Assembly (NCBI GenBank): GCA_001724265.1
Contig: MEDY01000157.1
Location: forward strand, 62,001-106,588
DNA: 44,588 nucleotides
DNA from: Rhizaria sp. SCN 62-66
Taxonomy: Eukaryota
Direction of reading: 5' to 3'
Part shown: positions 6,714-44,000 of the stretch, piece by piece
Layout of the letters: each line of letters opens with the position of its first letter
How positions within the stretch are numbered: position 1 is the first letter of the stretch
The notes under the pieces: model-generated
What the model saw: only the letters and a program-made list of their open reading frames with translations
Database searches by the model: none
What the model was told of the DNA's origin: nothing
Program-made: the position numbers and the translations under genes

Positions 6714-8149
6714 ATGAGCGCATCTGCCGCTGCTGAGCGCCCACAAACCGCGCCTTCTCGCCGTGGTTACCCTAGCCAGGCTCGTACGCGCCCTTCCAGC
6801 GCCGCTGTACACTCTAACAACAACAATGACGGTACGTTCTCGCATACCTCTTCGCTCTCACCAACTTTGCCCCATTAAACCACATATGTCTTTCTCAAGT
6901 GACGTTAGATCTCAACTGTATCACCCAAAATGGTATTGAAACACTTACTATGTATCTAATAACTGCGTTTTTAACTTTATTCAATTTGTTTGTGCGATGC
7001 TTGACAACAGGCGAAAAGAAGCGCAGTAAAGAGGAGCAGGACAAGTACTACTCTAGCCTCGCGACGCCAGTGAACCGCGACTACCCGGACATCATCTCCG
7101 GCATGGACAGCGAGGTTAAGAACTGCACATTTCAGCCGTTTATTAGCAAGGAGTCGCGCAAACTTTTCAGCACGCTGCGCAGCTTCGACGACGGGTGGCG
7201 CGAAGACGTCAAGGCCCGGGAAGAGGCCCGCAACGAGACGCCGCCACTGGACCAGCACTGCACGTTCAAGCCGGCGTTGTCTTACACGTTCCGCGGCAGC
7301 AGCAAAATGCGCCCCGCAGTTGAGACTAAGGAAGAGTGGGCGGCGCGCATGTCGCGTTACAGCAACCGCAGTGCGCAAGCTGGCGGCGACTTCACTGCCA
7401 CTGCGAGGTACGCTAGCTAAACACTTCAATCCATGATATATCCGTTAAAGGTGATCATTGAGAGATGTTGTTGTATAGCATATTATTTAATTTAGATTCT
7501 TATTTATCAACCGAAACTAACATCTTAGTCTGTGTAATTTGTGTTTCCCAATCTCATTTGTTTCCTCCTTAGGCCCGAGTGGAGCAAGGACCTGACGTTT
7601 CAGCCGCGGCTCAACCTGGCCAAGACGAAGGAGATCCAAGACCGCAACAATGACCACCGTGACTTCCTCGCGCGCTACGCGGACGACATGGCGCGCCGCA
7701 AGCAGGCGATGAAAAGCCGCGAAGAGGCCGAGAGAGCGCGCACCGGCACCTTCCACCCGGCCACCACGGGTGGCGCTGCTGGCGCGGGCGCGGGCTCCGG
7801 CGCCGGCGCGGGTAGCGCTGCAGCGGGCACGGGCGTCAGCGCCGCGCTCGCAGGCTGGTCGGGCGCGGGCGGGCCACGCAGCGTCCTGACGAGGCGCGAG
7901 CTGGACGCCTTTGTGTACCGCATGGAGGTCGACAGCGAAAACCGCGCGCAGCGGTTTTAGGAGCGCAACCGGCTGCTCGGCGTTGGGCTCAGCGACGACC
8001 CCAGCAAGCGGCGCGTGGACCTGCGCGCGATTGAGGTTGCGATGGGCCGCGAGAGCGATGCCGACGGCGGCTATGGGGGCAAGGGCGGCAAGAGAAGCGG
8101 CCACAAGCGGCCCAAGAGTGCGAAACGCGCCCAGAGTATCGGCGTATGA
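6714..8149 (+). CDS. Hypothetical 363-aa protein with (C/L)TFxP repeats; exons 6714-6831, 7011-7407, 7573-8149; internal in-frame TAG at 7958-7960
   Basis: Introns 6832-7010 (gtacgt...acag) and 7408-7572 (gtacgc...ttag) keep the frame. Repeats CTFQP, CTFKP, LTFQP and GTFHP. After the TAG, 62 more codons with the same GC3-rich bias run to TGA at 8147-8149, where AT-rich sequence begins. Confidence 0.72.
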
Positions 8150-9026
8150 GCAAAACTCAATACCCACTCTCAGTCGTAAGCTCTATCCCTAGTACAAAAA
8201 CAGTTGACAAGCTATGTCTTCGGAGTATGCTTTTTTTAATATACTGTCATGGTTGCGGTGTGTTTTGTCCTAGTCGATTTGTGATCGCAAGTATAGCAAG
8301 TTTGGAAGTTCATGCTAAGATGTTTCGTGATCTCTGGGGCCAACGTTTTTCTTATCCAACATTATTATTTGTAAAATTATGTTTTTTGTTTTTTGTTTTG
8401 CAGTGCCAATATATTCACTCACTATGGGTTTGCTGCTTTATCTCTTTCGCACAATTAATACAACATGTTACGGTTCTTACATTTCTGACAGGATCTTGCG
8501 TGCGAAAGAATATGTATTGACGACCAGACAAAAAAATTGTTCAACTTTTAATCAAGTCACCACTCGCAGCAACAAGATGTACAACTAAAGCTCCCAATCG
8601 GTATTTGAGGCAGAGTTTTGGATCGACGAGTGCTAACAGAGAGAACAAGGGTGTCTTTGTTTGTATTCTTGTGGGACTAATTATAATGACCCTTATATTA
8701 TTGGTATTGCAAACTAAATGATGATACACATACTAGGTTTTGTTGAGTTATATAAACTAATACATTAACCACTATCGACGACCTGCCAACGACAAGCAAC
8801 GCAAAAAGCAGACAGCTAGAAAACAAGGCATAGCAAGACAATAAGCACTCATACAGAATGCAACATTCAACTCATACAGCTAGATTGACGCAAACGCCAT
8901 CCTTGGATGCTCCGTTGCAAGTCCAGTGGTGATTGTGCGTCATTGTTGCATGTCGTGTAGCAAGTGCTCGAGTTAGCGAGGCCAAGTTCGTTCTTTGTTG
9001 CTAATGTGCATGTTTCCGCTCCGCGC

Positions 9027-9752: not shown

Positions 9753-10162
9753 TGTACTTAATCACCGACAGGTCCTAGCTACTATACACAAAGTGTCAAA
9801 GCTGTTGCAGGTTAAATACACGGATCTGCGTGACGCAACAGACGTTTCAAATATCGGGTCCGTTCGTCTCTCTTAGCGGCTGGTGGCTGCTGGTTGCCAG
9901 AGGCAATGGACCGAAAAAACTTTCTTCGGTCTCCTTCTTTAAATTGAATAGGAAGCACTCCAAACGTGAATTTGAAAATAAACGCATCATATGTATTTAG
10001 GACTAGATAGTATATATTTTTGTTCAGTTAACAGGTCACACAGCCACATGGCAGGCTGTTATTAGTGCAAACATCGTACTCACAAGCCCTTCGCCACCGA
10101 GTTGGCGCTTTCAAAGAGTGACCGTTATGACTTCAATGTTTGTCTAACTTCCATGCATCTTT

Positions 10163-13100
10163 TTACTTCTGTTGCAGCGAATTTTGCATCTGTTGCGCCA
10201 TCATCTCAGCATCCTTGGCAGTACAATGCGCCTGAATCACACCCCAGTACTCCGCATTCTCGTGATACGGAGGTGGCATTAAGACGTAATCGATACCGAA
10301 CTGCCACCGCAGTGCGAGACGCTCCATCAGCACCTGCGACACGAAGTTAAGCTGCCCGTCCACATTCGCACCGCCAACAGTGCTCGCAGCAATACTCGCT
10401 GCAGAGCTGGGACTCGTACAGGGAGTGCAAGCGGCCTCGCTGGCGGGGTTGTTGAGGGTGTCCGATCGAGCAACCAGCGTGGTCACCTTAGGCGTGAACG
10501 CGGCAGATCGAGGGGATAAGCTCGAGAGGCTCTGCAACGCCGTGGTGTTGGGGGTCAATGGGGGCTGCTTAGCTTCCCGCGCCACGTTATCACCAGAATC
10601 GCTATGCGCTGCACTCGCGAAGCCGCTTGCGCCGTGCGTGCTAGAGTTGCTGTTGCAAGGTGTGTTGCTTCCAGTCCCAGGCGCAGTTGTGACAGTCACG
10701 CTCACGTTGCAACGGCTGCCTTTCGGCACATTCCCCGTCGTGTTCCTGTCACCGTCAGTGACCGCGAGCACTGAGCCCATTTCGCGGTCGTGCACAGAGT
10801 CAATGTCGCTCATCGTCATCGCTGCTTGCAGCGGCTGCTGCGGCGCCAGTTCATAGGCCTCGCGCAAGTCGCGGACAACGTTGTTGTGCACATCCTGGAG
10901 CACAAGAAACGAGCGCTGCATGTCGGCGCGCATCTTGGCCCAGCCTTCAACGCGCACGCTCTTGGCGACGTTGAGGTCGTTGCTGCTGGCGTTGACAATG
11001 ATCAGCGGCGGGTTCGGCGTGCGCGGGTGCACGTCGACACTTACACTCGACCGCGGGACTAAGTACCCCGGCAGAGCAGCTGTGCTCGCGCTCTTGAGGT
11101 TACTAGTGCCGGGGACGTGGGTACCCGCGAGCGATGCAAGCGGAGGCGGGCGAATGGCGTGCACACTGGGGGCGAAGTACGTGTCTGAGTGGAAGTAACG
11201 GAAAAAGCGCAGCAGCAGTGTCTCCATCGGGAAAAGCATCTCAGCAAGATCATGCGGCGACGGGATCTGCACAGGAACGGAAGAAGCTTCGGCACTCGCA
11301 GTCGCGACGCTGTCTGCAGTGGCGGGCTGCGTCTGCGCCTTGGCTTCATTCTCGCTGTCATTGATGCACTGGACACCCGCAATCTCAGCAGCAGCAGCGG
11401 CGGCAGCAGCAGCAACGGAGGCAGCATCAGCATCAGCAGTCATCGGCGTATCTGATGCAAGGGGCTGAGGTTTCGGTGACTTGATGTTGAGCCGATCAAG
11501 CAGCGGCGTCATCATCGAGCGCTGGCCGTGTAGAGAGTTGCCGATGCTGCTATCGTCGCTGCTGTTCTTGCTCGCATGGATGCCATCCTTGTTCTTGCCC
11601 TTGTTCGCAGACTTGAGACCGTTGCTCAAAACTAAGCCGCCGTCCTCACCGTCACTGTCAGCATAGTAGTCTTCATCGTCCTCATCATCGTCATCATCGT
11701 CACTGCTATTCTTGCCGCGATTGCGGCCATTAACGCCACCATCATCATCGCCATCACTATCCAGATCATCGTTACTCCCGCGGGTATTCGCCGCCTTGCG
11801 AATGCTGCTGTTGTTCACAGAAAACCTCTGCTGAGCTGCACCACGTGTGTTGGCGCCGGCGGGCGTGTGGTGGCTGTTGAAACTTGAACTTGGACTCGGC
11901 CTTGGGGGCGCAAACGACGGCAAACTCGAGCTGTTGCCAGCGCTATTCTTGTTCACAAGATGCGGCACCGACTGCGACGCCGTGGGAATGCACAGCGACA
12001 GCCGGGCACTGCGCCGCACGCCGCTGGCGCTCACACCGCCTGCTAAGATACTCGCATCCTGCGTCGTGTTATCCATATCTGTGATGCTATTGTCGTTGAC
12101 GCTCGCGTTTGCGCTCTCGCGCTGGCGTTTTAGCGGCGTTATCATGTACGTCTGTTCACCGCCAGTAGTTGCGTTCACGTCGTTGTTGTTGTTGCTGTTG
12201 CTGCTGTTGTTGTTAGCGGCGATTATAATAGAGCGAGAACGCGAACGGGTTACTGAGCCCGGCACCAGCAACGGCAACACAGACCCATTGCCCGCACTGC
12301 TGCTGTTGCTGTTGTGGCTGAGCACTGATGAGACAGAAGCCGACGCAGTCGGGAGTTGCGGCAACGGCAGAGGCAAAGTCACATCGGCATCGTCGTTGTT
12401 CTTACGACCAGCAGGCGTCGTCGCGGTCTGGCTTTGCGACAGCGAGATCTGGCTGAGTGACAGCACAGCTTGGCTGACCGAGCGCGTCACGCGCACGGGC
12501 TTGAGCGGCGTGACAAGCGAGGCCAAGCTTGACGAAACATCGATGATGTTGCTCGCGTCAATAGCGTTGCCCGCACTGTTGCTCGCGGTATTGATCGGGG
12601 TCTTGGCCGTGGCTTTCTGACTGCGCTTGCTGTCATTATCGTCGTCATCATCATTCATTACCGGCTTGTTTGCAGCCTTGACCTCAGCTTTGTCGTTGTC
12701 ATAACTCGCCGCCTTAGCATTGTTATGAGTCGCAGTTTTGGAGCTCGCGTTAGCAGCGGTGCTTGCGCTCAAGCCAAAGCTTGACTCGACGGCGAGAAAA
12801 TGCGCCACCAACATCGCATAGCCAAACGAGTTGAGCGTGCCGTCATACGCGGAGTTGTTGCCGTGCATGCGCGCCCAGTGCTTGATCAGAATCACCAGCG
12901 GCCGCAGCCGCGGGTCCCGGGCAACGAGCGCGCGCAAATACTCGGCGTTGGTGAAGGCGCATGGGTCGGCGGGCGAGAGGTCCACGGCTTGCTCGCCGCA
13001 AAACATGTTGTTGGCAGCAGGCGCGGCGTCGAGAGAGGGCGCGAGATAGGGCAGGAGGTACTTGAGCTTGCTGCGGTCGGGGATTGGAGACACGTTTTGC

Positions 13101-15019
13101 AAGTCCTCGTATTTCCGGAAGAAACGCATAAGGTAGGAGACGACTGCCATGCTCGCGGAGACAAAGCTAGACCCCTCTGCAACAAGCTGCTTCTTGGGGT
13201 CAATCGCGATCTCAGGGATCGGACCGAACGCAAGCTCGATAGCTGTTTTCGCGTCCTGCTCAATCCAGTCTTCGTTCTGCGTTCCTGTTTCAGTCTCTTC
13301 AGTGTAATCCGGGTTGGTGTTGGTGGCCGTGCCCCAGCGGCGCCAGGCCCGCTCTGCGCCGACGCCGCTCCTCAGCACGGCCTGCTGCTCGGGCCCCAGC
13401 TGGCGCGGCACCAAGACGCCCAGGTCGGCGTCCGATCCCGCCATGGCGAGCCCCGCGGCGAGCGAACCGTAGGGCCGCGCGCTCGCCTGCGGGTGCCAAG
13501 CGCGCAGCGCGCGCGTGGGCCGCCCGGCCGCGGCCCAGAGCAGACGCGACTGGTGCGGCGACAGCAGCAGGCGCGAGAGCAGGCCCAGCGCGGGGGAGAA
13601 GGCGAACGGGCCGGGGCAGGGAAACGACGTGATCGTGGGGTCTTTAAGGGCAGACGGAGATCCACCGTTGCCGCTGCGTCTGCTATCGCTCTTGCCCTGC
13701 GCCTGTGTCGTTGCTACAGGGAACGCCGTAAGCGTGCGTAGCTGCGCGAGCGCTTGGTAGTTAATGAATGGCTCTTGGTAACGACTTGATGTGCTCAGGT
13801 TGCTGAATGCACTTAGAGCATGGCTATCTGTGCTTAGATTGATTCTAAACTGACTGGCACCGTCGCTGGCGTCAGTGTAAGCGCCCTAAGAGTACTGGCC
13901 GCCATACATGCCATCAACGAACAAGCCTTGCCCTTGCTGCTGCAGCAGCAGCTGCTGTTGCTGGTCCTGATGCTGATTCTGTTGCTGCAGCTGCCACTCT
14001 GCGAGAGGCGGAAACTTTTGGGGATCGTTGTAGGGATGAACCGCGTTGTTGTTACCGACTCCGCGACCCTTGTTGTTGTTGCCCCGGCCACCCTTTTGCT
14101 GCTGTCTAGTCGGCGCCTGACGAAACGTCTGCTGCTGCTGTTGCTGCTGGCTCTGCTGCTGAGGCTGCAGTTGGCCCGGCATGAACGGCCGAGAGCTCGC
14201 GTTGATATTGCTGTTGTTGGTAGCGCTGTTGTTTTGTGCGCGACTACGAGTGCGTTGGTTGCCGTTCCAGGGGCCGTGGCCGCCGGGCGCCGCGAAGTGG
14301 GCATGGCCGCCGCCGCCGTGGTTGCGGCCGGTGGTGGCGCTAAACGTCATCAGTGCTGGCTGCGACTGTGAGTGCGGCAGCGCTTGCGCGTCCGGTGCAG
14401 GCGGCTGACTGAACAGCAGTGGCGCCTGCTGCTGGTGGTGGTGCCACGGCAGCGGCTGAGGCTGCTGGTACTGCTGCTGCGGGTACTGCTGCTGATACTG
14501 CTGCTGCCGAGGATGGCCGTTGCTGTTATCGCTGTAGAACGGAGTCACGGGGACTGACGCATCGGTCCGACTCGCGACGCCGTCAGTCGGGCCGCTCAGA
14601 CTGGTTACCATTCCGCCCGCGTCCACGGGCGTGGTGGCCGCGGAGGCCGGGGCAGAAGCGGAGAAGTGACCATGGGCGTAGGGGGCGCCGGCGACAAACT
14701 GCTGCTGCTGGGGATAGTAGTGCGGCTGCTGCTGTTGATACTGCTGGTGCTGGGGCGGATACGCGTACTGCTGCGGCTGATTGAACTGAAAGTCGCCTAT
14801 ATTGTGCCCGGGAGGAGCAATTGTGTGACTGAACCCACCACCAGACGCGTAATCCCGTGGGTGTTGGTGCTGCATTTGCTGCTGCTGCCGCTGGTTGTTG
14901 TATCCTCTGCCGCTAGCACCACTACCGGCAGTGTTGCCCGCATTCGCACCACTGCCGCTCCCATTCCCTGGATAAGGCGCGTGTGGCGGGCGCTGTTGCG
15001 AGTTTCCTTTTGGGGGCAT
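10163..15019 (-). CDS. Non-canonical poly(A) polymerase / terminal nucleotidyltransferase (Cid1/GLD-2/mtPAP superfamily), ~1,618 aa, intronless; internal in-frame TAG at 13886-13888
   Basis: ORFs 13886-15019 and 10163-13444 share a frame, and the 147 codons between them are open. Pol-beta NTase motif PYGSLAAGLAMAGSDADL, third Asp in QAVDLS, RPLVILIKHWARMHGNNSAYDGTLNSFGYAMLVAHFL, and PAP-associated LLLRFFRYF...LIIVNASSNDLNVAKSV. Q/N/G/P/Y-rich N-terminus. Stop TAA. Confidence 0.85.
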
Positions 15020-15613: not shown

Positions 15614-18600
15614 TTACCGGCGGCGGCCACCCTTGCCACCCTTGCCCTTCCCCTTGCCCTTGTGGTTGTTGTTGTTGTGCTGGCTACTGTTACTGTTACC
15701 TTTGCTCTTTTCAGGCTCAGGTTCAGGCGTAATCGCAGGCACGTCCGCGTTGTTGTTGCCGTTACTTTCGGCGGCATTGTCGTCGTTATCGTTGTCGTAG
15801 TCTAGCTTCTTCGCAACGCTGCGGCTCTGGCTCAGACTCAAGCTCTTGCTGCCCGCCTGGCTCTGGCTCTGGTCCATTGAGCCGCTCTGACTGCCGAAGT
15901 TGAAGCTGCGCTGGTTCTGGCTGTCAGGCGACTGGTTCCCGCTCTGACTGTTGCTGTTGCTGGTCGCGTTATTGCCGATCTCGTCGTCGTAGAACGAGCC
16001 CATCAGGTTGTTGAACGAGTCGACGCTGGCCGAGCCCACAGTCGTCGCCGCAGTACTCGCGCTCTCGGTCACAGTCGCTGCAGCACCCGCGACAGGAGCA
16101 GAGCCGTTGTCGTTAGCAACCACAGAGCTGCTCGAAGTGCTCACGTCGCTGCCGTCGTTTGCAGGAGCCAGAGCCGCAGAAGCGAACTTGACGCTCTTCG
16201 AGGCGGAGTTGGCAGCCGCTGCCACCTTAGGGGTGGCGGCAGGAGTGGCAGCCTTGGTAGTGGCAGCCTCGGCCACCTCACCTTCAGCGGGCGCGGCTGT
16301 AGCAGCGGCAGCGACAGGGACAGGAGTCGCCGCATCGGTGGCGTCCGCGTCGTTCTCGTCGTTGGTCTCACCCGCCACGCTCTTGCTAAGGGTGGGGGCC
16401 ACTATCGACGGCGGCACAAGGCCCAGCGGGAGAGGCTCCTCGTTGACGTTGTCCACATCACCCGCAGCATCACTCTCGTTGCTGTCACCGTGCTCAGTGT
16501 TGTTGTTGTTGTCACCCTCGACGACCTTGCCCTCAGTCTCGGCCTCGGCCTCGGCGGCAGCGGCCTCCGCATCGGCCACGGCGCCCACAGAGTGCGTGAG
16601 CGAGTGAGCCAGGGAGTGCGACAGCGCCTCGGCCGCGTGCGCCGACTGCGACAGCGCCAGCGACTGCTGCTGCAACGTCGACACGACCTCCTCCCAGTCG
16701 CTGGAGCCCGACTTAGCATTGTTGTTTGTCGCAGTGCTCGCGGAGAGGCTGTCCGTGTCGCCTTCGCTGCTGTTGCCATTCTTGCCGTCGTCGGCATTCG
16801 CAGTGCCGGTCTCATCATCGCCGTCATCGCTGTCGTTGTCGAGGCTGTGCTGCAGCTTGCCAGCAGCAACGGCCACGCCGCTCGCGTTGCCGTCGCCGCG
16901 GCTTCTCGCCTCGTCCGCGCGGCTCGAGGTGCTGAAACTCAGACTGCTCGCCAGAGCGTGGGTGCCGTTGCTGGCGGTGAGGCTGTGGCTACGGCTGCGG
17001 CTTCGGCTGCGGCTGTCGCCGCGCCACGGCGACAGCGCCTCGACAGCGGCCACGGCCTCGGCACGGCCGCTGGCGCTCAGGCGGCCGACGCTGCCGAAGC
17101 GGCTGCCGCTGCCGGCCGCAGCGCCGTAGACCGCGGTCGCGCCGGGGCCAGTGCTCCCGGTGAGGAGGTCGACGGCGGTTGTGTTCTCGTCGTCGCCCTC
17201 GCCCTCGCCGTGCTGCTGCTGCTTCTGCTGCTGCTGGGCGAGTGCGGCGGCGCTGGAGCGCAGGCGGGAGCGCGAGCGAGAGGACTCGCCCAAAGCCGCA
17301 GCCGCGCCGGGGGTGTCAGATACGGTGACGGCGGGGGCGAGGAGAGACGCGACCGCGGTGGTGTTCTCGCCGTCGTCGGCGGCGGCACTGCTCTTGCTGG
17401 CCTTGCTGTTGTTGCGGGCGTTGGCGGCGGCAGCAGCAGCGGCGGCGGCGCGCTTGATGCCCGCGACCGCGGCGGCCGTGGCGGCGACGGTGTCATCGTC
17501 GTCGCCGTCGTCGCCGAAGCGCCGCACCTCGCCGCCCTTGCCACCCGCCCGCTCGTCGCCCTGCGGCGCGGCGCCGGCGTCGCTCGCGCTCGCGGTGGCG
17601 CCGTTATCCGCGGCGCCAGCGTTGTTCGCGCCGGCGTTGTGGTCGCCATTGGAGTCGCTGGCCTTGAACGTGCCCTCCATCTGCTCCGCGTACGCCACGA
17701 GCCGGACCACAGGCCGCGCCGCGGGCGTCGCCGCCGCCACGGCCGCCGCGAGCGTCGTCGGCGTCGTCGTCGCAGAGTCAATACTAGCGCTCGCACCGGC
17801 GCCCGCGCTCGCGTGGGTGCTGCTGCGGTGAGTGGCGTTGGACGGGGTGGCGTAGACGCTGCCGCTAAGGTTGTTGCTGCTGCTGCTGTCGATGCTGTCG
17901 CTGCCGGCGGTGTGCGTGGCCGAGCCGGGGGTGGCCGCCACTGTCGCAGCAACGTTCGTGCCCGCGCTAGCGTTCTGCTGGGCGGGCGTGGCAGTGCCAG
18001 TCTGGTAGCTCAGGTGACTGACAGGAGACGTGATGTTGCTGTTGCCGGACTTGGAAGCAGACCCCTTAGACGCGGAGCCCTTAGACTTGGTGCCCTTAGA
18101 TGCAGGCGTGGCGGTCTGCGAGCTGAAAGCGGTCTCATCAGGGGCGATCAGCGTCGTGTTCTCGTCGTCGTCATCGGCGTTAATCACTGCAATGGCGCCA
18201 GTCGCCGTCTCAGCGTCGCCACTCTTGCCGTCCTTCACAGCACTAGCGCCCTGGTTGCTCGCGCCGCCCGCCTTCTCTGGTGTGCCGGTGGCCGAGTTGG
18301 CGCCGGAGCCCGCGGACGCAGTGTCCTCAGCCTCGCCCTCGCTGCCGCTGCCGGCGCTGCCGCTGGCGCCCTCGGTGGGGACGAAGAACCACTTGGTCTC
18401 GCCCACGCCGCGTGCCAGCCCCGCCGTCGGGGACGCGGGGCCCGCGGGCGTGGCCGCCTTGGACGGGCGCTTGCTGGCCTTGGACTTGGCGGAGGTCTCA
18501 GCGGCGCCGGCGCTGTTGGCCTGGTTGGAGATGGCGTCGGAGTTGGCATCGGAGTCGGACTCGGAGGCGGAGTCGGTGACAGTGAGAGTGGCCGGGGCGG

Positions 18601-26403: not shown

Positions 26404-26437
<34 letters not shown>

Positions 26438-27909
26438 CCGGCAGAGCCGCGGATCATCTTGGTCTTGCCAGACGTCGCGCTGGCGCTTGCACCGGCTGCT
26501 GCGGCGAGCGCATCGATCTCGTGCGCCGCGGCGCCGGGCTGGCTGCGGCCGTGGCCGTGACAGTGGCCGTGGTGGCCGCTCGAGCGCGGCGCGCGCTGCA
26601 GCGGGCCCGCGGCGGCCGGGCCGGGGGCGACCGTGGGCGCGAGGCCCATGCCGGCGCACTGCGGGGCCGCGCTGACGGCCGCCGGGCCGCCGCCGTGGCC
26701 ACGGTGATGAGCGGCGTGTGCGTCAGCGTCGGCGTGCGGGGGCGGGAGCGCGGCGGCGAGCGGCGCGACGGCGGCAGCGGCGGGGTCCGAGCCCGAGTGG
26801 GGGGCCGCGGCGGCCAGGGGCGTCGCGCGGCGGTGCGGGGACAGAGCGGTGCGGCGGTGGGCCGGGGAGGAGGAGAACAGGCGGCGCGGCTGCGAAGCCA
26901 CACTGTTCAGACCCGCACTCGCAGTTGCGGCGCGCGTCTGTTCCTGGGGCTGGGGAAGGGCAGGCGGGTCGAAGGAGGACATGGGCGGGGTCGGGGGCAG
27001 CGCGAACGCACGCTTCTGACCGCCGGTCACACTGGCACGGGCACTGACACTGGCACTAGCACTCGCGCTGGAACTCGCGCTGGAACTCGTGCTGGCACTG
27101 GTGCTCACGGTGGCGCTCGCACTAGCGGGAGAGACAGCGTTGTTGTTGGGGTTCGCAGGAGCAGAGCAGGACGAGAACGAGCGGGTGTATGAGCCCCACA
27201 TACCGCCGCCGTGGGCGTTGGCATTGCGACCGTGAGCAACAGCGGCACTAGCAGTACGCGCGCTGGGACTGTGGGTGTTGCTGTTGCTGCTGTTGGAGTT
27301 GTTCTTGTTGCTGGCCTTGAACGCATTGTGCGCGGCACGGCGCGCCTGCTCCTGGGTGACGCCCGCGGAGCCGGGGCTGGAGAGGGTGGCCGCGCCGGCA
27401 CGAGCGTCAGCGTGGGCGTGAGTGTGACCGCGAGCAGGTGAAGGACTCAGAGTCATGGTGGCCATGCGAGACTCTGAGGCCTTGTGGAGGTTGCTGCCGT
27501 TGCTATCGCTGTGCGCATATACTGCGCGGCGCGAGGTCTGCGGGGACATAGAAGTATTCGCATGTACGATGGCATCACTAGAGCTGACAGTCTCGGCTGT
27601 CTTGGCGGTCTTGCAAGATTCAGCAGAAGTCTCAGCTTCAGCCTCTGCATCAGCCTCGACAGCAGTCGTAGCAGTCGCAGACGCGACCATGCTCTCATGC
27701 TGCTGCGCGCACTCGCTACTAACGGTAGATTCACCAGCAAAAGACACGACAGCAGCAGCCTCAGCGTCTGCCTGAGTGCATGAGGTGGAGGTTGAGTGGG
27801 AGTGGGAGGTAAGCGATTGGGTGACTGTGCGGACTGCCTTTGCGGCGGCTCCTAGCGCGATAGGAGCAGCCTTAGCAACCGCAACGGTAGCCTTCGTAAT
27901 TGAAGACAT
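15614..27909 (-). CDS. Giant (~3,992 aa) low-complexity Ala/Ser/Glu/Asp-rich protein with one predicted TM helix; exons 27909-24201, 24042-21608, 21448-15614
   Basis: Three long ORFs are joined in frame by introns 24200-24043 and 21607-21449 (both gtacgt...cag). Exon total 11,979 nt is divisible by 3. Hydrophobic stretch WAKVLIFAGAAAVLAATVDSLW at ~25780-25846. No recognisable domain. Stop TAA. Confidence 0.72.
18860..19640 (-). repeat. Coding imperfect tandem repeats producing an Ala/Glu/Lys helical rod (AEAAAAAEA / AEAKAKAEA)
   Basis: Recurring gcagcctc(a/g)gc units on the + strand, including a 30-nt unit repeated in tandem near 19551-19620. Translates to ~260 aa of A/E/K repeats. Confidence 0.8.
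26404..26436. repeat. (AGC)11 trinucleotide microsatellite encoding poly-Ala on the minus strand
   Basis: Perfect agc run read directly from the sequence. Confidence 0.85.
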
Positions 27910-32000: not shown

Positions 32001-35000
32001 CAAACGCGTCAATTAGCATCTGCGTCGCCACCAACGCGGAGTCTGCCGTCGAAGCCTGCATGCCGTTGAACGCATCCAGTGACGCCAGGGACGACGTCTG
32101 TGCAATCAAAAGTTGCATTGCTTGAATGCGCGCATCACTGTCCAGATGCTTGCCGTCAGCACAAAGCTGTGTAAGCAGCTCAATTGCCACCTCGGAGTAG
32201 CCCGACACCCTGTTGAACTGGTTCGTATCTTCGGTTGTCGGCTCAGGGCTACTACCACCACTATTAGCTGACTCCTCAAGCGCAGCTGCAGCGCGGCGCG
32301 CGTCCTGGGAGACTGTGAGCATTTCTGCCACGCTGCGCACCGCAATGAGTAGTCGTGCGCGGAAAGCGGTGTTCTCCGCCGCGGTGATACTCGCAGTGTC
32401 AAGCGCATCAGTGATGCGCAGGGTAGTTTGGGTCACGGTGGCGACATCTGAGAGCTCAGCGGCTGCGTTAAGCAAGGTGAAGAGATCCTCTATCTCTGTT
32501 GCGGTCGACCCATTGTCGGCGTTGTCAAGTACGTTGTACAGAGACGGTGACACACGCCGCCGTGATGACTCAGCCGGCGGGATGAAGGGCACCCTGATCT
32601 CAACACGCGTCCGAGAGCCCCAGATGTCGGTGATATACACAGCGACCACGCGCACAAAGTCGTCATCCGCTTGGCCCGCGCGCAAGGTGGCGTTGAGCGT
32701 CGACAGCGGCAGCGGCATGCCAATCTCAACCCACGTGCTCTTGCTCACACCGTGCACAACACGCTTGGATTCAGCGTACCAGTGGTATGTCAGTGGCAAA
32801 TCCTCCGGGTCATCCTCCCAGCCGCTGCATTGCAACATAAATGGAGTGTCGGAAACAGCATGAGTGGCGTTGGCGTCAGCAAACGCTGCAGTACAAAGAC
32901 CAGAGCGCGGGGGTACGTTAAGATGAAAGCTCCCAAACCCAGACACAAGCTCAGACGGTAGTGTGCCAACTGGCAAATCTTGAATCTCAGCCTGGGTGGG
33001 CACAACCGTGCCATCAGTGGAGTTGTACAGTGAGAGCCGCATCGTGTAGACCACGCCGGGCAGGAGCTTCTGGCCGGCGAGGGTCAGCGTGTGCACCATG
33101 CGACCCGAGCCGTCACTCGCGGGCGCCGCGCCGCGGTGCAACACCAATCCGGGCTCGTCCAGGTTCGCATTGCGTGTGTCGCACGACCATAATGCGATTG
33201 GTTTGCGCGCTTCATTCGCGGCGGTGCTGGAACCGCCGTCTACGCGTGACACGTATGCAGTCAGTATCAGGGGGTTCTGCTGGAGCAACTGCGCTCGGTC
33301 TGGCGGGGCGACTGTTACCGCGTACTGAGGGGGATTAGGCACAAGGGTTACAACGGTCGCTGCGCTAACAGTGGGGCGGCCAGCCTCCTTGCCCACGGTA
33401 ACAGAGAAACGAAGTGAAGTCATCCCTTCGGGTACGTTGGAAGTCAACCTTTCCGCAGGCACAGTAAGTACGCTGGGTGTCGCTGAAGTAAGATTTGCCA
33501 AGAGCATAGCTGTGTTGACACCGAAACAAAGTTCAGTCGGTGTTAGGTTGTCCACGCACGTCCACACAAAGGTTAAGTTCGCAGACGGTGCGTCGGTTGC
33601 TGGGTTAACGTCGGGGTCACGAGAGGCTGCAGCAGAGAGAGTGAGGGGTAGTTGCACCGCGTGAACACGGTCACCGCCAGTCAACGATGCACGCAGTGGA
33701 GACGCATTCACGGTCACAGAGACAATGTCTGAGTTAGGATAGAGGTGGTCGGTAGTGTTATCGGTCACAGAAACTTTGAACTTGTACGGTGCGCTACGCG
33801 CTCTCATTGCGTATGCGCGAACACGAAGCGGCGCCAAGTCTCCCGTGAAGTCGACATCGACAAGAGTGTTGTTGTCTGCATCCACTTGTTCCCACGAGTA
33901 CGTAATGCTGTAGCGCGTCGTCATCTCGTCGCACAAACCGACACGCGAGACCAGCGCATTCACGAACAGGTTACGCGAGGGCAACGTTGCGACGTCTTTG
34001 CTGCCCGCAATGGCAATCTGTGGCAGCGGTGCTTTGGACCGCGTCACAGAAACGCTCGTTTGTTCCGATGTACCATACCACGTCGTTAGTTTCAGTGTGA
34101 ACGTGCTAGTCTGCCCCTCGTCAAGAATTGTCGCAAGCACAGACGGAGTCAGAGTGAGCAGAGGTGCATACATCGGAGACTTGGTCGCGCGGAACTGCGT
34201 GGACGAGTTGTACTCACCAAAAGTTGTCTTTAAATAGTGGGTAAAGTTGGTGACTTGCTCCGTCCTGCCCGTGACAGACCACTCGTAGACAAAGGCGAGC
34301 CCACCGTTGTTGGTGCTAGCTGCGGTCGACAGCGTAAGGCTGTCACAAGGTCCCACCGTCGTTTGAGCTGTGATGACGGGCACAGGGACGAGGGTCAGGT
34401 CGACAGGAGCCACGATTAAGAGCGATGTGCGCGGGAGGAAAACTTGGCCTTCACCCTCGATTGCGGTGCTGCCGCGGCGAATGACACTGCTAAGAAGGGT
34501 CAATACAGTACCGACGCGGGCAGTGAAGGAAGCACCGAGCACGATGCTGAAGACTATTTGTGCAGGCATTGGACAGAATACGCAGAAACAATGTGGATAA
34601 TAGATAAGACACAACGTTCGCAGGATGTCACAAAAATGAAATGCAAAATGTGCTTCATAGACAAAGTTCAGCAGTGCAAACAAAACACGGACTCAAATAG
34701 AATGGTTGATGCAATATCATGTGGTAGCATTGCAGGAAAAAACGTACCAGTCGGGGAAACCCACGCACACGTTGGCTTATCGCCGAGGGTCGCAGTAGAC
34801 AACACCAAATCACAGTTCTCTGTCGACGCGGACGTCGTGTTGCGCGGCTGCTGCGTCGGGAGATCAAAGACAATCCGCAACTCATTCATGGCCGTCGTAA
34901 AACGCGGAACCTGGGGCTCGGGATAAGGTAGCCGAGGAACGGCAAATGCAGTGTATGGGGGCAGGCCATTGCCAGCGTGAAGGACCTTGATGTTGCACAT

Positions 35001-38000
35001 GGCATACCCACTGCAAAGAAATGAGATCGGGTGAAGCAGCGTGAGATAAGATTTGAAATCTAGAAATCAGGTTTGATATAAAATGTTATGTTGACAGAAA
35101 AAGTGGGCATCCCGTGATAATTCTAATGTCGTACCTTGATTGCGGCGGCGATGCCGCATTTGTCGCTGCCCTAAACGTCGTGAAACCGGCTATCTGGTCC
35201 ACGGGATCTGTCGCCATCGTCTCATACGGCGTCTCCTGCACCCACCGGCCGCCGTAGAGCGTGAACGCAGGGATGCCTTGCATGGCGTACTGCGCGGTCG
35301 GATCATTCACCAGCGCAAACGTATGCGACGCAAGCGCAGGCAGAGTGGTCGGGAGTAGACTGTAGTTCGCGGGCGCCGATGGGCCAGGGTCGGGGACAAT
35401 CGCGTCCGCCCACACCGCGCCGTAGCCCAGCTCGGCGTCCTCGATCACGGGGTCGCTGGCGTAAGCGCTGCTCACAACGATGACGGACAGCGTTTTGGAC
35501 AGCACCGCGGCGGACGGGGCCGCGCCGGTGGGGGGCGCAAACATGGCAGTAAGCTGGCCCGTAAGTGTGTTGATGACAAACATATCCGAGCTTGAGGCGT
35601 GGCCCTGAGTGAGGCCGCCGCCACGGGGAGAGGCGTGAAGACGCATCTGGGGCACAAGTGAAGATTCGTAGACAAGCTCGCCTCCAGCTGCCGATGTGGT
35701 GAAGTGAGTGTTTTTGGACCTCGGACCGCTGTACAAGGTCAGTACATCATTTGTAGGGATCCCGGGTGCAAACGAACTATACGCAAGCGACTCCTCAACT
35801 CGTCCCCCGCTGCCAAGTCCGGCTTTACTGATCGCATTGGACCATAAAGCAATAATAAGACCCGCGCTATCTGCTGTAAGGGTGATTGGAGATTTCAGAG
35901 GCAGCGTAAATTCGGTGCCGGAGGTGCCGAAGTCGGCGCGTGTGTGTTCTTTGGTCGAATTGTCAGCAGGGAGGTAGTCATTCAACTTGGCATTTGGCGA
36001 ACTATTCAAGCTCATGACACCAAGTTTAATCAACACAGACACATCGGCATCCGCTGGGCGTGTGAGATAAAAGGTGATATTCCGTAATGTCATTCCGGGG
36101 AGCAGTCCTGCTTGTCTGAGCAGATCGCGCGGCAGGAAACTCACAACTTTACTGGGAGCGGCGTTGCTGCCTAGAGAGTCGAGCGGGTATGTCAGCGTCG
36201 TCGGGTTTGCGATTGTGGCGAAATGAGTAGGGCGGGACAGTGTGATCGGCGCCGCAGACCGATAGATGTCAACATACACGCCGCGCGCAGTCATGCCGCC
36301 AAAGCAGTACACCTTGGTGCTGTTGGGTAGAACGTCGCAACTGTGGTCGTAGCGCGAACCCATAGTACGCGCAGACACACTGCCGGTGAAAACCGGGATA
36401 ATAGCAGCGTCAGTGATAGTTGGCTGGAGCTTAAGGCTGTGGCCAGCAAGAAGAGTCCACGTTTCCTGCACAGTGTCAAAGCGCCAAATATCGTCAAGCG
36501 CACCGTGCGCGCCGACACCGCCGCTGAGAATGAGATCCTCGCCCACGGACACAAGAGAAGCGCGAGCGCGGGCTGACGGGCAGAAGCTTGCGATGCCGAC
36601 AGTGCTCCCGACAACAATATCAGACTCCATGGCGATGTAGTCTCCATTCGTAGAGCAGCCGACGTACTGCCAAGTGATGGCACCGGTTACTTCCGCGCGA
36701 TACCGCCACAGATCAGCGCGGTAGACAACCTTCAAGGTCGCGGTGTTAGGAATAAGGCCGCCGTAGGTGTACACCCAATGTTGGTTATCATCGGTGCGTT
36801 TCAGGATCGCAGAGCTGTGAAAAGCGCGGGCGCCAGGATAGCCGGGCGAGTAGGATGCGGGATCGCGGCGGCGCTCGTGGCCGTTGGAGCCACCTGAGAC
36901 AATCTCCGTGGGCGGTAAGATGGTGGGAGACGGTTTGGCACCAAAGGGGTCGCGACCGGGGACAAGCTCAGGTGGCACTTGAAGGGATGACGCAACCACC
37001 TGGATCCGCCAGAGACGCTCGAAGTACTCTCGCTAAAGTAAAACAAAAACAAACAAAAAACACGAATATATCGGTGAGATTCTTGAGTCGAATTGCGGAT
37101 GAAAACACTCAGCGATGCATGAAAGCATTGTAAAAATGAAGCAAAGCATGATTAAAAAGATTATTGTAAAACGTACCTTGCCGTCTCCTGTGCTGACAAT
37201 GCCACCGAACAGGAAAAGGCAGTTGCCCGGTGGGTAATATACCAACGACGCGCCCATATATTGCCCTGTGTATGCCACCTTGCCTTCGGTCGCATTCGTT
37301 TCGAGCACCGGCACCTCAGCTGCAGAGCTACGGTCCTGTGCAATCAACACGCTGCTGCGCGCAGACAGTAGGTGCGCTGAAATGACAGCAGACATCCCTG
37401 TCGTATCTGCACGGTCTGTGCCGCCCGCAATAAATGTCACCGTAGAGCCCAGGGGCATTCCCAGAGTGATCGCTGCCGTCCCGGTCAGACTGTGCGTTGT
37501 CGTGCTGGCGGCGTAGAAGCGCGGCTTACCACCAGGCAGTGGTGTGCCGTCAGTGTCGACAAGAGCGCGCACGGTGAGTGGGGAGCAGAGCCGGCCGACT
37601 GTGCCGGTCATGCACGAGCATGGATAGGCAAGGTCGTTGGTCGGTGTGCTAGTGTTGCCCATACACGTCAGGGACTGCACTGCCGGTGCAGTCGGTGGCG
37701 CATACGCGCTACGGCTGGTCTCGCAGTGTTCGCCGTAGAAACCAGTGGAGCAGTGACACTTGTAACTCTTGGTACTTAGACCAACAAAGAGCGTCGGCGA
37801 GGTAGAAATACAAGTCGCGGAATTGCAGACAGAGCAAGTGCCCCCATTCACGCACGGGTTGGTTGCGCACGGCGACGTGAGCGCAACCAGTGCGGATTGA
37901 TCGACGTCAGATGCCATTTGGCTAAACTCGTAATACGGGTATGAGGAAGTCACACCGCTCGCATGATAACTGGTGGGGTAAGTTAATCCACCGGTGCGCA

Positions 38001-41000
38001 TGAGCACGGCAGTTGGGTTAGTGTACGCTGCGTTCACAGAACCGACTGTGCTAGGAAGCATCAAGAAAGAAGCTCCAAGCCTGGCATCGTCACTCGTAGT
38101 TGCCCATGTGAAGCTCTGAGACGGGGGCGTGGCGTTGCTCGTGGGGTTCTTTAACCACGCCCACGCTGCAACCTCCGAGCCGACGCTGTGCGACAAAGGT
38201 GCAGCAGCTTGCGCGATGAGTGACGTGCGCACCCATGAGCTGTTGTGTAGTTGCTCTGCAAACACTGCGAACACAGTGCCATCAAGACATGATTCATCCT
38301 CGTTGTCTGCATAAATTCCGTCGTTGATCGTTGTGCCCGGGTTCAGCATTGGCCGCAATCCGTAGCCGACGTACAAAAGCCCCTCCGCGTCGGCGGTCAT
38401 GCTGGCGTAGGCGCGCGCGCCGGGGGCCTGTAGCCGCGAGGGGGCACCAATAGTGACAGCAGTGCTGCGCGCGTGCGGGCTGCCTTGGACGGCCCAAGTG
38501 AGCGGGCCGGAGAGGTACGCCCACTGCTTCTTGGAGAACGAGAACACCCAAAGGTCGGACATAAACGCCGGCCGCGGGAGCACCCCGCCGGAGCCCAAAG
38601 GCACACCGTGAAGAGAACCGCCGAAGAGATAGAGATAACGGCCGTCGTGTGAAAAAGTCATGCTGGCGCCGAGGCGACAGCCAGGGTTGTTGGTGGAAGC
38701 GTAGGCGCCCGGTGCGCCGGCGGAGGGCAAGTAATCACCCTCGCCAAGGTTGGAGAGGCCGGACATGCGTGCCCACCTAGAACAATACAAAAATATGGAG
38801 CGACATGCAGAATTGTGAGTGATTGAGCAAGGTTCAGTGCAAACCATCAAGCATAGCTGAGCTGAGGGGTCCGTAAATTAAGTAGAGGCATCTCTAACAC
38901 AACACAAAGTGAAACGTACACTGCGTCATGAATTGCAGTTGATGAGTTTATCTTAGTGTACAGGCACCACAAATCTGTGTTATATGAGTCGCCGTAGTTT
39001 CCGGACATATATGTCTGCGTTCCCGAGTACATGCAGAACATTGAGTCGTTGTCGGCAGCCGTTGATCCTGAGAAGGATGCCTTGGCAAAGCCCTGGCGCG
39101 CGCCAGGATGGTAGCTGGCATCCGTCTCACCATTAGAGCCGTACACACTTTGATAAGGGTCAGTGCCTGCTGGGTATGATGTTGTGTTCAAATGGGGGAA
39201 GCCTGTCGTTGTCCAGATCTGTAACAAGAATTGGCAAAGCAAAATCAAGCCAAAGACAGTAAGAGTGAGCATTAATAAACAAATGTAACCACAACGCGCG
39301 CATGTCAACTAAAAATAGATCTGTCTCATAAATGGATGTCAGAATTTCATTAACCGTAAAGCACTTTGAGTACCTGAAACGAGATCGAATACACCCAGAG
39401 GCCCGGCTGTGCCACAAAACTATCTGCGTACAAATACATGTACTAGCCATCAGGCGAAAACCAGGCATGTGATTCCAGACTCGGCGGTGGTGCAGTCGCA
39501 TTCACATATGTTTTGCCGATAGAAAATGCCGGGATCAACGCCTGCGTGAAAGTGTGCGTCTCCGCGTAGGCCGAATTGCGCGGCATTGCAGTCATAGTGT
39601 TCGCAATCAAGTTCACCCGCGTGAACGCCGCACTGGCGGTTGCTACTCCAGTCACAGAGTTGATTGTCATGCCACCAAAGCTGTACACCTCACCTGTGCC
39701 GGGCCGGTGCGCGACGGCAGCGAAGGGCAGCACAGTCGGTGCGGTGTTGCCCGCGAGCAAAACTGAACCGTGTCTGAGCTCGAACTTAGCCTTTGCTGCA
39801 TCGACTGATACGTTGCCATTAGCGCACTGCGCGCCCTGTGTGTAGCTGTTGCAGTGGCAGAATGATGACCCGCCACCGGCGACGCAAGCGCCCATAGCGC
39901 CACAATAGATGAGAGAAAAAGATGATGGACATGTGTTGCCCTTAGAGCTTGTTAGTGAAGTGCGGATCTGCTCTCCGTAGACAATATCGTTTTGGGGCAA
40001 CCATGGCGTGAACAATGCATTCATATTGTTCTGCAATGTGGAGTTATGGCAAGCGTCTGAGCCGTAGGCTGTGCTATCAATACATGTCAAATTAGTAGGG
40101 GTATGGATGACGTCAATCGTCCATAAGTCGTCATGTACGGTCAGCTGCTCGCAGCTCTCGAGACCACGTTCCACTGCCGGGTTTGCAAAAAACGCCTGCT
40201 CAGCCACGTGGGTCGAGCCCACAGTCCAGCCGCCGCGGAGAAAAAGCGACGTGTCCGTGGTCACCCGCGCCGAGAGCAAACTTGAGGACGGGATCGACAG
40301 TGTGGCGCCAAGGCGCGCGCCGGGCCAGTACGGAAACGGAACCTCACTGCCTGGCACTCCACTGCGGGTGACATTTGAGCCGGTGCGCGTAATCGGCGCG
40401 CTGAAGGCGCGAACAAGGCGCCAGGTCAAGTTGGCACGGAAGAACTGCCACAAATCGTCCAGCTGTGGGGCCGCATGGAGCGCGATCGTGACCGGGGGCT
40501 GCGTCAGCGGGTGGCTATGCAGGGGGGACCGCAGCAGCAGAACGGGACGCGCGGTGTACCGGTCGAAGTTGCGGGATGTCTTTGAAGCTTCGGGTGTGGC
40601 ATACTTAAGAAGAGACATGGAACGCACTGTTTGGCCCTCGTGCATTGCAAGCCCGAATTTGACTGCCTGTGATGTATCTATGCCAGCACCTACAAAGACG
40701 TACTCAATAGCCATGTAGAGTATGGCGTTTCCGGACGACAGCGTCGAGGAGAGAGTATCGGTATCGTCTTGGACGTCCTTCATATAAGGGGTATTGATGG
40801 CCATAAAAGTTCCAGGCGCCCAATTTAACGGATCAATCATGACGCCAGGTTGTTTGAGCAAAGAAAGCTCAATAGCATCAAGATAATGCGGGCCTGCGTT
40901 GTCAAAGTCTCCCAACAATGTCGGAACTAACAGCGTACGAACGCGGAAGCGACTGCTTCTATCCCACGTTCCGGACTCGGACAACATTGAATGTTGGCCT

Positions 41001-44000
41001 AGTTTGACCATAATGTCCAGCGAGGGCAGGTTGGAATCAACCGGCAGACCTGCAGCGAGGAACTCGTCACTCGAGTACAGAAACGCATGCAGCGACAACG
41101 CGTTGCTCTCGGTCACAGTGGAGTTGAAGCGGCCCTTAAGCGGCAGCGTGAACGGCGCAGCAGCCGGCAGCGCATCGATCGCTGTTTGTACACCATCAGT
41201 GCCGTCAGGACGCACGAACGCGCCAAGACCGTGGCCGCGGCCGCCGTAGAGGAAGATGTCTCCGTTGGCCGCAGTGTTCATGGCGTGGAACACGCGGCCG
41301 CCGGGGAGGGACGGAAGGTTGGAGCTGGCGGGAAAGATCACGCGCGGCTGTCCGCGCTCACCAGCAGTCGGCGTCCCCGCCTTTTCATCCAGCCGCTGCC
41401 ACGCTGCGAGGGCCGGGGGCGTGAGGCTGAGCAGCCAGAGACCGGCCAACACGCCCGAGTCGTTTTCGGGCCCTGGAGCCGTCTGCAGCGTCGTGTCCAC
41501 TGCGCTGGGGGCGGAGAGCAGCAGCGCGGAAAGCGTGCCGCCGTACATGACGAGGGTGTTTGCCGTCGCCGTGTTGTGCGTCTCCCACACCAGCGCGGCG
41601 TAGGCGCGGGCCGCCGGCGTGGACGCGCCACCGCGCAGAGGGAGGTTGCTATCGGAGCTCGTTTCGGAGCCTAAGACGCGGTGCCAGGACAGGGTCGTCC
41701 CGTCCGAAAGATTGTCGGCGATGTACATCGAGTCAGACTCGTAAACGGAGTTGTAACCAGCCGGATTTTGAGTCGATGCCAACTTGTACCCGCCGTAGAT
41801 GACGATGATCTTTCCGTGCGCAGCCATTGCAGCTGCGGCAGTGGGCGGGGGTGGAGACAAGTTGTCGATTGCGCTGGCCGAGGAAGGCCGCGGCTGTGCC
41901 GCTGTGTTGCCGCGCCACCACGCCCACTGCCGCTTGTCGAGGCTGAACGACCACATATCATCAAAGAATGCCTGCTTCAACACGTTCGCGGTGATGATAG
42001 GATAGTAAGCGCCACCAAAGAGCCAGATTATGCGCGTGGATGCGTCATACGCTAGCGACGCTGAGTGCCGCGCCGCTGGCCACAACGACGGTGAGTAAAT
42101 CCCGGAAACCAGCCCGCCCACGCCGAGACCGGCGGGCAGCCGGAGCAGCGCGGGGTCGCCGTGCAGCAGCGTCGTGGTGTTGGCCAGCGAGTCGACCATC
42201 CACAGGTCCGACAGCAGCGCGGGCTCCGCCATTGGATACTTTGCTGGGGAAGCAAGTGGGAACGTTTGCAGGGCAATACCGCCGAAAAAGAACGAATACT
42301 GACCTGACAGAGCCGCTGTGCGGAGGGGGCTCTGCGGGCCGGCTGCAGCGCCAGAAGCGGTAGCATGTAGGTAGCGCGGGCGCGGGCGCGGGGCCGGGCG
42401 CGCAGCGGAGACGGACAGCGGCAGCTGCGGCGCCAGTGAGTACCAGTCCTGAAGCGGCACGGGGAACTCCACTGCGGAAATAAACGGGTTCGACGCGCGG
42501 TGCGGCTGGTAAAAGTTGCGGGGGGTAAATGCAGAGATGGATGCGACTCCGGACGAGGCCGACATTGGACCCATTTTCAAAGTCTGATAAAGCGACACAG
42601 CAAAGAGATGTGAGTGAGCATTATTTTTACAATCATAGCAGTAAAAAACGCGTGTTGAGTGAGTACTAGTCGTACACGTAATGACGTACCTAGTTGAGAG
42701 TGTATGTGGTCGAGAGCCATCCGTCAGCAGTAAATCCCAGTGTCGGGTCCGAAGTGAGCTCCGACGGGGCGGACACAAAGTACATCGACAACACAAGATA
42801 AAAACTGTTCGCGTCGACGCCACTGACGCCGTGGATGTGCAGACTCGAGATCGGGATTTGGCAGTACCCTGAGATCAGGATCTCATGGGGCGCGACCGGC
42901 GGCACCACGGATACGGTGGCTGAGCCGCCGTCGAGGACCCCGGCGGTGTTGGCGGGCCGCGCGCTGACGGTGCAGAACGTGCCCGGCGCGCCGCGGTACG
43001 TCTCGGTACTGCTGCCGCCGCGCTTGAGCCCCAGGCGGAGGTAGCCGCCGCCGTTGCCCTGGAGCCCGTAGTCTTTCGCCAACCAGTTCGCTGATGCTGC
43101 GGAGAAGTCAACCTGCCAGCCGTCGGTGGTGGTTGATGCGACGGTGTCGAGTCTATACACGGGGGCCGACACCGTCAAAGTGCCGAACTTGAGCGCTGGC
43201 GTGACCGTAAACGCGTTGCTCGCCACAGGAACGGTCTCAGTGCTGGAACGCCAAGGCACAATGCAGGAAAAGATGCCAAGATACATATCCGGGATGTCGG
43301 CCGTGATGCTTACCGTGGGGATCTCCATGGTCGCCGTGAGGCCGCCAACGATCGCGGGCGTGCCGAGCGTGATCACACTGCTCTGCAGGGGACTATAGTC
43401 AAGATAACACGCGATGTTGGTGGAGTTAAACGAAAACGTCGCATTTGCACTCAGTGTCAGGACAAAATATGCCGTGCCCAGCGCCGCAATGGAGCGTTTG
43501 ATGCTGCCGCTGTACGAGAAATGGATATCGACACGGTTATTAGTGCGAATCCACTGGTTCTGGTAGTACACTTTAGGACCCCTAGGAGCAGTCAGCTAAG
43601 GCGCGCCAAAGATATTAAACGTTGGTGAAGCTGTAACTATCGAGACGTTGTTGAAGTCGGTCATTACCGCCATCGTGTGAGAGTCTGTCAATGTTGACGA
43701 GGGAACCAATGAGACTTGGCAGGAGAATGTGATGTTTGTGGCAGGCGCAGTGGTGCGAAATACAATATCTTCGCTCGCAAAATTGCCAATAGTGCCAACA
43801 ATTGTCACAGTGGTAGTCACTGACTCGATGCGGCAGTTACGCATGGTGCCCGTCTGGATGACGATGAAGGAGGAGGAGTCCATTAAGGAAAGCTGAAGTG
43901 TGGTGATGCCAACTTCGAGCGAGGCCACTGTGCCGCTGAAGGCCACAGTGGAGCCGCTAAGGCCATTTTCGATCGTGAAGGCGTGCAGTGCCGTTGGGAA

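Follow-up and report, generated by a model that had tools for sequence, protein, structure and literature searches.

UAG is probably a sense codon, with UAA and UGA as terminators, in a GC-rich eukaryotic genome from wastewater

Does UAG still end translation in the organism deposited as Rhizaria sp. SCN 62-66? The question is raised by a 44,588-nt stretch of its assembly (GCA_001724265.1, contig MEDY01000157.1, positions 62,001–106,588 of the forward strand), hereafter the window, whose own numbering is used throughout. The window comes from a eukaryotic nuclear genome, and five TAG codons lie in frame inside three of its genes. A preliminary description had proposed that UAG is no terminator here while UAA and UGA remain stops. 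This proposal is backed by orthologue alignment, by a coding signal that persists past the TAGs, by a synonymous majority among the differences between samples and by a further TAG in a homologue. Probably, UAG specifies an amino acid and termination is left to UAA and UGA. It would be decoded by a tRNA with a CUA anticodon and poorly recognised by eRF1; ARAGORN found no tRNA gene in the window, and the eRF1 gene does not lie in it. The TAGs and the three genes that carry them, referred to as gene A, the 1,618-codon gene and the giant gene, are the following.

7958–7960, + strand: in-frame TAG, codon 301 of 363 of gene A, with 62 coding codons after it (GC content at third codon positions, GC3, 0.83)
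6714–8149, + strand: gene A, with exons 6714–6831, 7011–7407 and 7573–8149 and a TGA end; spliced coding sequence of 1,092 nt
13886–13888, − strand: in-frame TAG, codon 378 of 1,618 of a low-complexity gene, with the coding score kept in frame
10163–15019, − strand: the 1,618-codon gene, a single-exon, Gln/Asn/Ser-rich gene with a TAA end and no Pfam match
43596–43598, − strand: in-frame TAG, codon 147 of the giant gene, aligned with Val in the homologue P0002
42690–42692, − strand: in-frame TAG, codon 449 and last codon of exon 1 of the giant gene, adjoining a GTACGT donor
39443–39445, − strand: in-frame TAG, codon 1496 of the giant gene, in a conserved Kelch-type blade (AWFSPDG-TAG-YMYLYADSF) with both flanks conserved
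29014–44055, − strand: the giant gene, seven exons, with TGA at 29014, from a spliced model and orthologue alignment

All five positions hold a TAG in frame on the strand first described (7958 +; 13886, 39443, 42690 and 43596 −), and the three genes could be modelled from end to end. The codons that follow the TAGs were rightly said to differ (GAG, GGC, TAC, CTG and, after splicing, ACT), and no 3′ context common to the five points to programmed readthrough. The preliminary description had further excluded TAA, TGA and frameshifts from the modelled genes. This holds for the two stop codons, neither of which occurs in frame in 10,833 modelled codons, and needs a slight correction for frameshifts, as a one-base problem exists at 44037. 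With five occurrences in those codons, in-frame TAG has a frequency of about 0.46 per thousand; the rarest ordinary codon, ATA, stands at 1.07 per thousand.

Do the reading frames continue as coding sequence beyond the TAGs? A codon log-odds score was trained on 9,387 codons picked away from them and applied to the 30 codons past four of the TAGs, 42690 being left unscored because an intron follows directly. In frame, these stretches score 0.49, 0.52, 0.40 and 0.52 bits per codon, and the other two frames −0.44 to −1.27. Past nine TAA or TGA codons, one of which was later found to be intronic, the in-frame score lies between −1.51 and −0.03 in eight cases and reaches +0.41 in one, where an in-frame stop follows. 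In gene A, the coding score after the TAG is 0.61 bits per codon over 60 codons; TGA then ends the gene, and the GC content drops to 0.34–0.44 beyond it. The TAG is the sole internal stop of the spliced gene (363 codons), which has no Pfam match and whose last exon found no homologue in a protein search. In the 1,618-codon gene, TAG 13886 is likewise the sole internal stop. The in-frame score there amounts to 0.29 on the upstream side of the TAG and to 0.23 on the downstream side, the other frames being negative and containing stops, and the next Met, the start of the public protein P0004, comes 147 codons downstream. A protein search with the TAG region of this gene matched the window's own open reading frame (ORF) only. 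A motif of the form ...YGS...SDADL... in the same gene is presumably of the Cid1/Trf4 nucleotidyltransferase type.

Homology across a TAG comes from the giant gene only, since searches with the TAG regions of the other two genes gave no homologue. Its parts are as follows.

44036–42690, 42583–39374, 39218–38920, 38776–37177, 37032–35135, 35010–34748 and 34553–29017, − strand: the seven exons
42584–42689, − strand: intron 1, 106 nt, GTACGT...CAG, which splices in frame and has a perfect donor after TAG 42690
37033–37176, − strand: intron 4, 144 nt, GTACGT...TAG, whose terminal TAG is in frame and is not counted
35011–35134, − strand: intron 5, which holds TAA 35086
44037–44039, − strand: a GGG run after ATG 44055, with the ATG one base out of frame in the window

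Removal of the six GT–AG introns leaves a coding sequence of 14,154 nt, i.e., 4,718 codons, in which the three TAGs are the only stops. Two other candidates were set aside: an apparent sixth in-frame TAG at 37033 (−), which is formed by the last three bases of intron 4, and TAA 35086, at which the raw ORF ends and which lies within intron 5.

A HMMER scan with exon 2 of the giant gene returned 101 proteins, 10 of them below 1e-30. The orthologue P0106, a single ORF of 4,671 residues, aligns with the spliced giant gene in one BLASTP segment (query 13–4712, subject 72–4653) at 43% identity, and past the last TAG 1,619 of 3,304 columns (49%) are identical. Each of the three TAGs falls inside this end-to-end alignment, TAG 39443 occupying exactly one column. 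The latter sits in AWFSPDG-TAG-YMYLYADSFVAQPGLW, both flanks of which are conserved in all six homologues that cover the site. Against close homologues the alignments are gap-free, with SPDG-X-YMYLY at 39443 facing SPDG-A-NMYLY and SPDG-L-FMYLY, and FGAP-X-LTAP at 43596 facing GSH-V-LNTP. In-frame UAG sits inside conserved, selected reading frames.

A further TAG came from a metagenome scan that yielded only two short contigs, L001 and L002; the same kind of scan with the ORF at the left end of the window gave 343 pattern matches, none of them confirmed. The product of L002, P0002, shares 52% identity with the first exon of the giant gene. When extended upstream on L002, the frame of P0002 crosses one in-frame TAG (L002:545) before it reaches a signal-peptide-like ATG. 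This TAG lies at a different site from those of the window, opposite TCG (Ser) in the window. The surroundings of TAG 43596 (43590–43601, −) and of L002:542–553 share CCY TAG CTG ACT (11 of 12 bases; Pro-TAG-Leu-Thr) at non-aligned sites. This context is absent from the other four TAGs of the window and may reflect chance or a favoured context.

The relation of P0002 to the window merits a separate remark. P0002, its neighbour P0107 and the window-identical P0004 are all recorded with a public contig of 36,383 nt as their longest, and the P0002/P0107 version of the giant gene is 52–62% identical to that of the window. Because it has this contig in common with P0004, P0002 may come from the same genome, as a divergent allele or as a nearby paralogue, rather than from another species. 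The ends of relatives' ORFs were also considered as signs of more TAGs and rejected, because an ORF end seen without its DNA is indistinguishable from an intron; the end of P0010 (...GG-TL), for example, is a GGTACGT donor read through.

Are the TAGs real, and is the sequence behind them under selection? A contig from a different study (X3) covers 42194–43784 with no difference over 1,591 nt, and the JGI contig L001 matches 41418–43753 exactly. TAGs 42690 and 43596 are identical in both and are therefore not assembly errors. For TAG 13886 the support is indirect only: P0004, the exact ORF after it, is recorded on four contigs. A contig from run X4 spans 39443 with six differences, whose position could not be placed. 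Between the window and the other samples, 40 differences form the best-supported subset reported by the tool, with 194 others outside it. Of these 40, 38 fall in giant-gene exons, where 25 are synonymous third-position changes and 36 lie downstream of all three TAGs. This synonymous majority supports selection on the giant gene.

Gene ends provide a further line of evidence. As had been noted, the eight complete genes end in TAA (five) or TGA (three) and never in TAG. The coding ORFs of the window have a GC3 of 0.74–0.88, and the lead of TAA despite this value fits avoidance of TAG as a terminator.

The homologues also bear on which amino acid would be inserted at UAG. Fourteen homologue residues stand opposite the three giant-gene TAGs and the TAG of L002: Leu, Val and Ala twice each, and Thr, Arg, Glu, His, Asn, Asp, Ser and Phe once each. 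Position 43596 faces Val in P0002 and a gap in P0106. Position 42690 faces Leu (P0002), Ala (P0106), Val (P0005), Thr (P0007) and Arg (P0013), the Leu having been read by eye in the last residues of P0002 (...SLD-L-VR...), which continue into the donor. Position 39443 faces Leu (P0108), Ala (P0107/P0011), Glu (P0106), His (P0005), Asn (P0009) and Asp (P0015), and L002:545 faces Ser and Phe. In homologues more than 50% identical, the residues facing the window's TAGs are Val, Leu, Ala and Leu (n = 4). Gln, Trp, Tyr and Lys are each found in none of the 14. From these alignments, Leu or another small or aliphatic residue appears mildly favoured over Gln, Glu, Lys, Tyr and Trp. The mild preference for Gln expressed earlier finds no echo in the homologues, and the lack of Trp counts against the alternative raised with it, i.e., Trp through A-to-I editing.

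Several observations weigh against translation of UAG as an amino acid. No single residue is common to the TAG sites (11 kinds in 14), and the sites are variable. The sample is small, comprising five TAGs, one more in a homologue and eight terminators. A TAG share of up to about 31% of terminators is compatible with none in eight at the 95% level, and if TAG ended 20–30% of genes, none in eight would have a probability of 0.17–0.06. Under the codon usage of the window, about 66% of random single-base nonsense changes give TAG. That TAG is the only internal stop is thus weak evidence, because this share gives P values of about 0.12 for five of five and about 0.08 for six of six; the earlier argument that the lack of TAA and TGA speaks against decay is weak on the same ground. 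Recurrence in a second sample covers TAGs 42690 and 43596, with 7958 and 13886 outside the compared stretch. At the RNA level, the poly(A) run X5 gave shallow contigs; none of the eight pieces listed crosses a TAG, and one contig (36950–37321) runs unbroken through intron 4, which may represent unspliced RNA or DNA carry-over in the library.

The start of the giant gene is a further point of this kind, since its only ATG (44055) and the long ORF are offset by one base. In run X4, one G at 44037 is missing (depth 6.7 of 6.7, one contig); the ATG is then in frame and reads MFTLFRHAVALILFF..., a signal-peptide-like start that resembles the start of the L002 homologue. The one-base problem reflects a mistake in the assembly or, alternatively, a null allele. 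In addition, X4 contigs carry indels in giant-gene exons (+5 at 34074, −1 at 36307 and −14 at 42914), which may be errors of low-depth contigs or real null alleles and gene decay in some strains.

The case for a translated UAG rests on a combination: TAG in three unrelated genes with no TAA, TGA or internal frameshift in the modelled codons, conservation and selection downstream, recurrence across studies, no gene end in TAG and a TAG in the homologue. How well do other explanations account for it?

The best-surviving alternative, which we consider improbable, is that UAG has two meanings or is leaky, ending some genes and being read through here by near-cognate tRNAs or a weak suppressor. Such an ambiguous code would suit the extreme rarity of in-frame TAG (0.46 per thousand codons) and its poorly conserved, tolerant positions, at which 14 residues are of 11 kinds. 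Eight terminators leave room for it, as computed above, and two TAGs (43596 and L002:545) share one context. However, the other four TAGs have unrelated 3′ contexts, and three leaky stops in one gene of 4,718 codons would multiply their losses and leave little full-length protein. Nor does it fit readily with the 49% identity over the 3,304 columns past the last TAG or with strain differences that, among those listed, are mostly synonymous.

Under the standard code, the TAGs would be true premature stops: the population would be decaying or highly variable, and the genes, dispensable or quick to evolve, would carry nonsense alleles. The 66% share of TAG among nonsense mutations, the frame problem beside the ATG of the giant gene and the three frame-breaking X4 indels in its exons all speak for this explanation, as does the fast evolution of the N-terminal part of this gene, shown by its 52% identity to P0002. 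Yet three unrelated genes of about 10 would be affected without a single TAA, TGA or internal frameshift in 10,833 codons. After a stop as early as codon 147 of 4,718, the rest should be free of selection, yet 25 of the 38 listed differences are synonymous. The same TAGs were recovered, letter for letter, in another study's sample; no Met separates the TAG of the 1,618-codon gene from the conserved-looking core of that gene; the additional stop of the homologue is again TAG and not TAA or TGA; and TAG ends none of the eight complete genes. Together these points render nonsense alleles quite unlikely.

Correction in the mRNA, by A-to-I editing of UAG to UGG (Trp) as in filamentous ascomycetes or by other editing, is very unlikely. 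In these fungi, genomic in-frame TAGs likewise coexist with full-length protein (PMC11156358, PMC10776026). In Fusarium graminearum, 71 'pseudogenes' with premature stops are restored by A-to-I editing (PMC10776026), and the fungal activity prefers U at −1 and often edits UAG (PMC11156358). Editing would account for TAG being the only stop found. However, it should leave Trp in relatives, so that the lack of Trp among the 14 residues counts against it. Three of about 10 genes carry TAG here, against 71 edited genes in the whole Fusarium genome, and editing would neither clear TAG from gene ends nor explain why TAG terminators are missing. In our judgement, the giant gene with its REJ, GPS and Kelch domains and the introns of 106–194 nt are also unlike those of a sordariomycete. 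Finally, unrecognised introns or other spliced-out segments around the TAGs, suggested by the intron end at 37033 and by the donor adjoining 42690, are extremely unlikely, since each TAG is one column of a gap-free alignment with close homologues where excision would break conserved blocks, and since the flanks are GC-rich, with no GTA[ACT]G[TC] donor in an AT-rich setting, the mark of introns in the window, beside 7958, 13886, 39443 or 43596.

A translated UAG is a rare but already known kind of code change. Changes confined to UAG have been reported in the sainouroid rhizarian exLh (Leu) and in Iotanema (Gln) (PMC5304391), and also in Protocruzia (Gln), several phyllopharyngean ciliates (Leu, Gln) and Scotinosphaera (Ser) (PMC11687900). 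No nuclear code with a changed UAG and UAA as stop was known until 2017 (PMC5304391), and their number remains small (PMC11687900). The window appears to work like these known cases and is set apart by the rarity of sense UAG and by its GC-rich setting.

The closest parallel is exLh (Sainouroidea), which ends translation at UAA and UGA and reads UAG as Leu, the residue towards which the present alignments lean slightly. Its terminators (UAA 56, UGA 15, UAG 0) stand in the same order as the five TAA and three TGA of the window, UAG is rarer in its highly expressed genes, and its relatives live in dung (PMC5304391), so that a wastewater habitat would be plausible. However, in exLh 71 genes together contain 384 in-frame UAGs, about five each, at conserved Leu positions (PMC5304391), whereas the window has five in 10,833 codons at variable positions; moreover, exLh is known from transcripts only, whereas the window is genomic DNA.

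Iotanema spirale (Fornicata) and Protocruzia tuzeti likewise use UAA and UGA as stops and UAG for Gln (PMC5304391, PMC11687900), in contrast to the window, where none of the 14 residues is Gln. Iotanema is an anaerobe (PMC5304391), whereas the organism of the window has mitoribosomal uL3m. In phyllopharyngean ciliates, UAG alone has passed to Leu or Gln with several independent origins, and UAA is the main terminator (PMC11687900). With GC-rich exons, introns of 106–194 nt and lengths of up to 14 kb, the genes of the window presumably do not resemble those of a ciliate macronucleus. In the green alga Scotinosphaera, UAG encodes Ser and UAA is a stop (PMC11687900). Here Ser faces the TAG of the homologue, as one residue only, and the window, unlike Scotinosphaera, shows no sign of a plastid-bearing alga. 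Ser synthetase ignores the anticodon of its tRNA.

The very low frequency of sense UAG suggests a reassignment that is young or weakly used. A narrower proposal, which we hold tentatively, is an independent and very early-stage capture of UAG in an unsampled aerobic, GC-rich wastewater lineage, in which the amino acid may be Leu. In this scenario, UAG would be gone from gene ends and back in coding sequence about once per 2,000 codons, at tolerant sites only. If true, this would be the nearest case yet to the step of the codon-capture model in which a codon is unassigned and then recaptured, and, the genome being GC-rich, UAG is not the stop whose loss theory would predict. Each new independent case tests how tight the coupling of UAA and UAG is and by what route a stop codon comes to be lost and then recaptured. 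The present one would stand out through an extremely rare sense UAG, TAA-dominated terminators despite high GC3 and its basis in genomic DNA, not only transcripts. There is also a practical consequence: gene callers that apply the standard code split such genes, and what follows a TAG is entered in public protein sets as a protein of its own (P0001, P0004 and P0002).

As for the architecture of the giant gene, Pfam matches in its ORFs in the window comprise Kelch, EGF and GPS, and those in P0106 comprise REJ, Kelch and GPS. In all, the gene comprises an unknown N-terminal domain, Kelch propellers, EGF-like modules, REJ, GPS and a multi-pass membrane tail. Relatives in metagenomes are single ORFs of 1,888–4,671 residues, and the Atlas cluster nearest to the tail consists mostly of Nucleocytoviricota records. 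A close relative (P0010/P0008) has an extra GTACGT intron inside the blade ...IVIYGG|Y(K/A)LAST..., which no intron interrupts in the window; relatives of the giant gene therefore vary in where their introns lie.

The window DNA is present in metagenome runs from bioreactors and wastewater in several studies from 2015 to 2025. Exons have a GC content of 55–70%, and spacers and introns are AT-rich. Introns are few; the eight that were measured or placed are AT-rich and 106–194 nt long, and nearly all of them open with GTACGT or a close variant and close with YAG. The earlier attribution of complex I and mitoribosome genes to this stretch stands for the latter: uL3m is identified by a Pfam match (PF00297) and by PDB sequence matches to mitoribosomes, which do not place the organism; two Atlas look-ups likewise gave no more than broad or virus-biased taxa. 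The complex I part is not confirmed, as the two small genes taken for its subunits match nothing in Pfam or among PDB sequences. An LSM/Sm protein gene was recognised by Pfam (PF01423). Rfam gave no match in the window, and gene A, the 1,618-codon gene, a 3,992-codon gene and the partial first gene belong to no known family. The 3,992-codon gene is the following.

15614–27909, − strand: Ala/Glu/Ser-rich gene of 3,992 codons with two introns and a TAA end, no in-frame stop and no Pfam match

This gene is also rich in Lys, and long frames are open on the opposite strand, one of 1,812 codons on the + strand; these frames are a composition effect of the local GC content of 70%.

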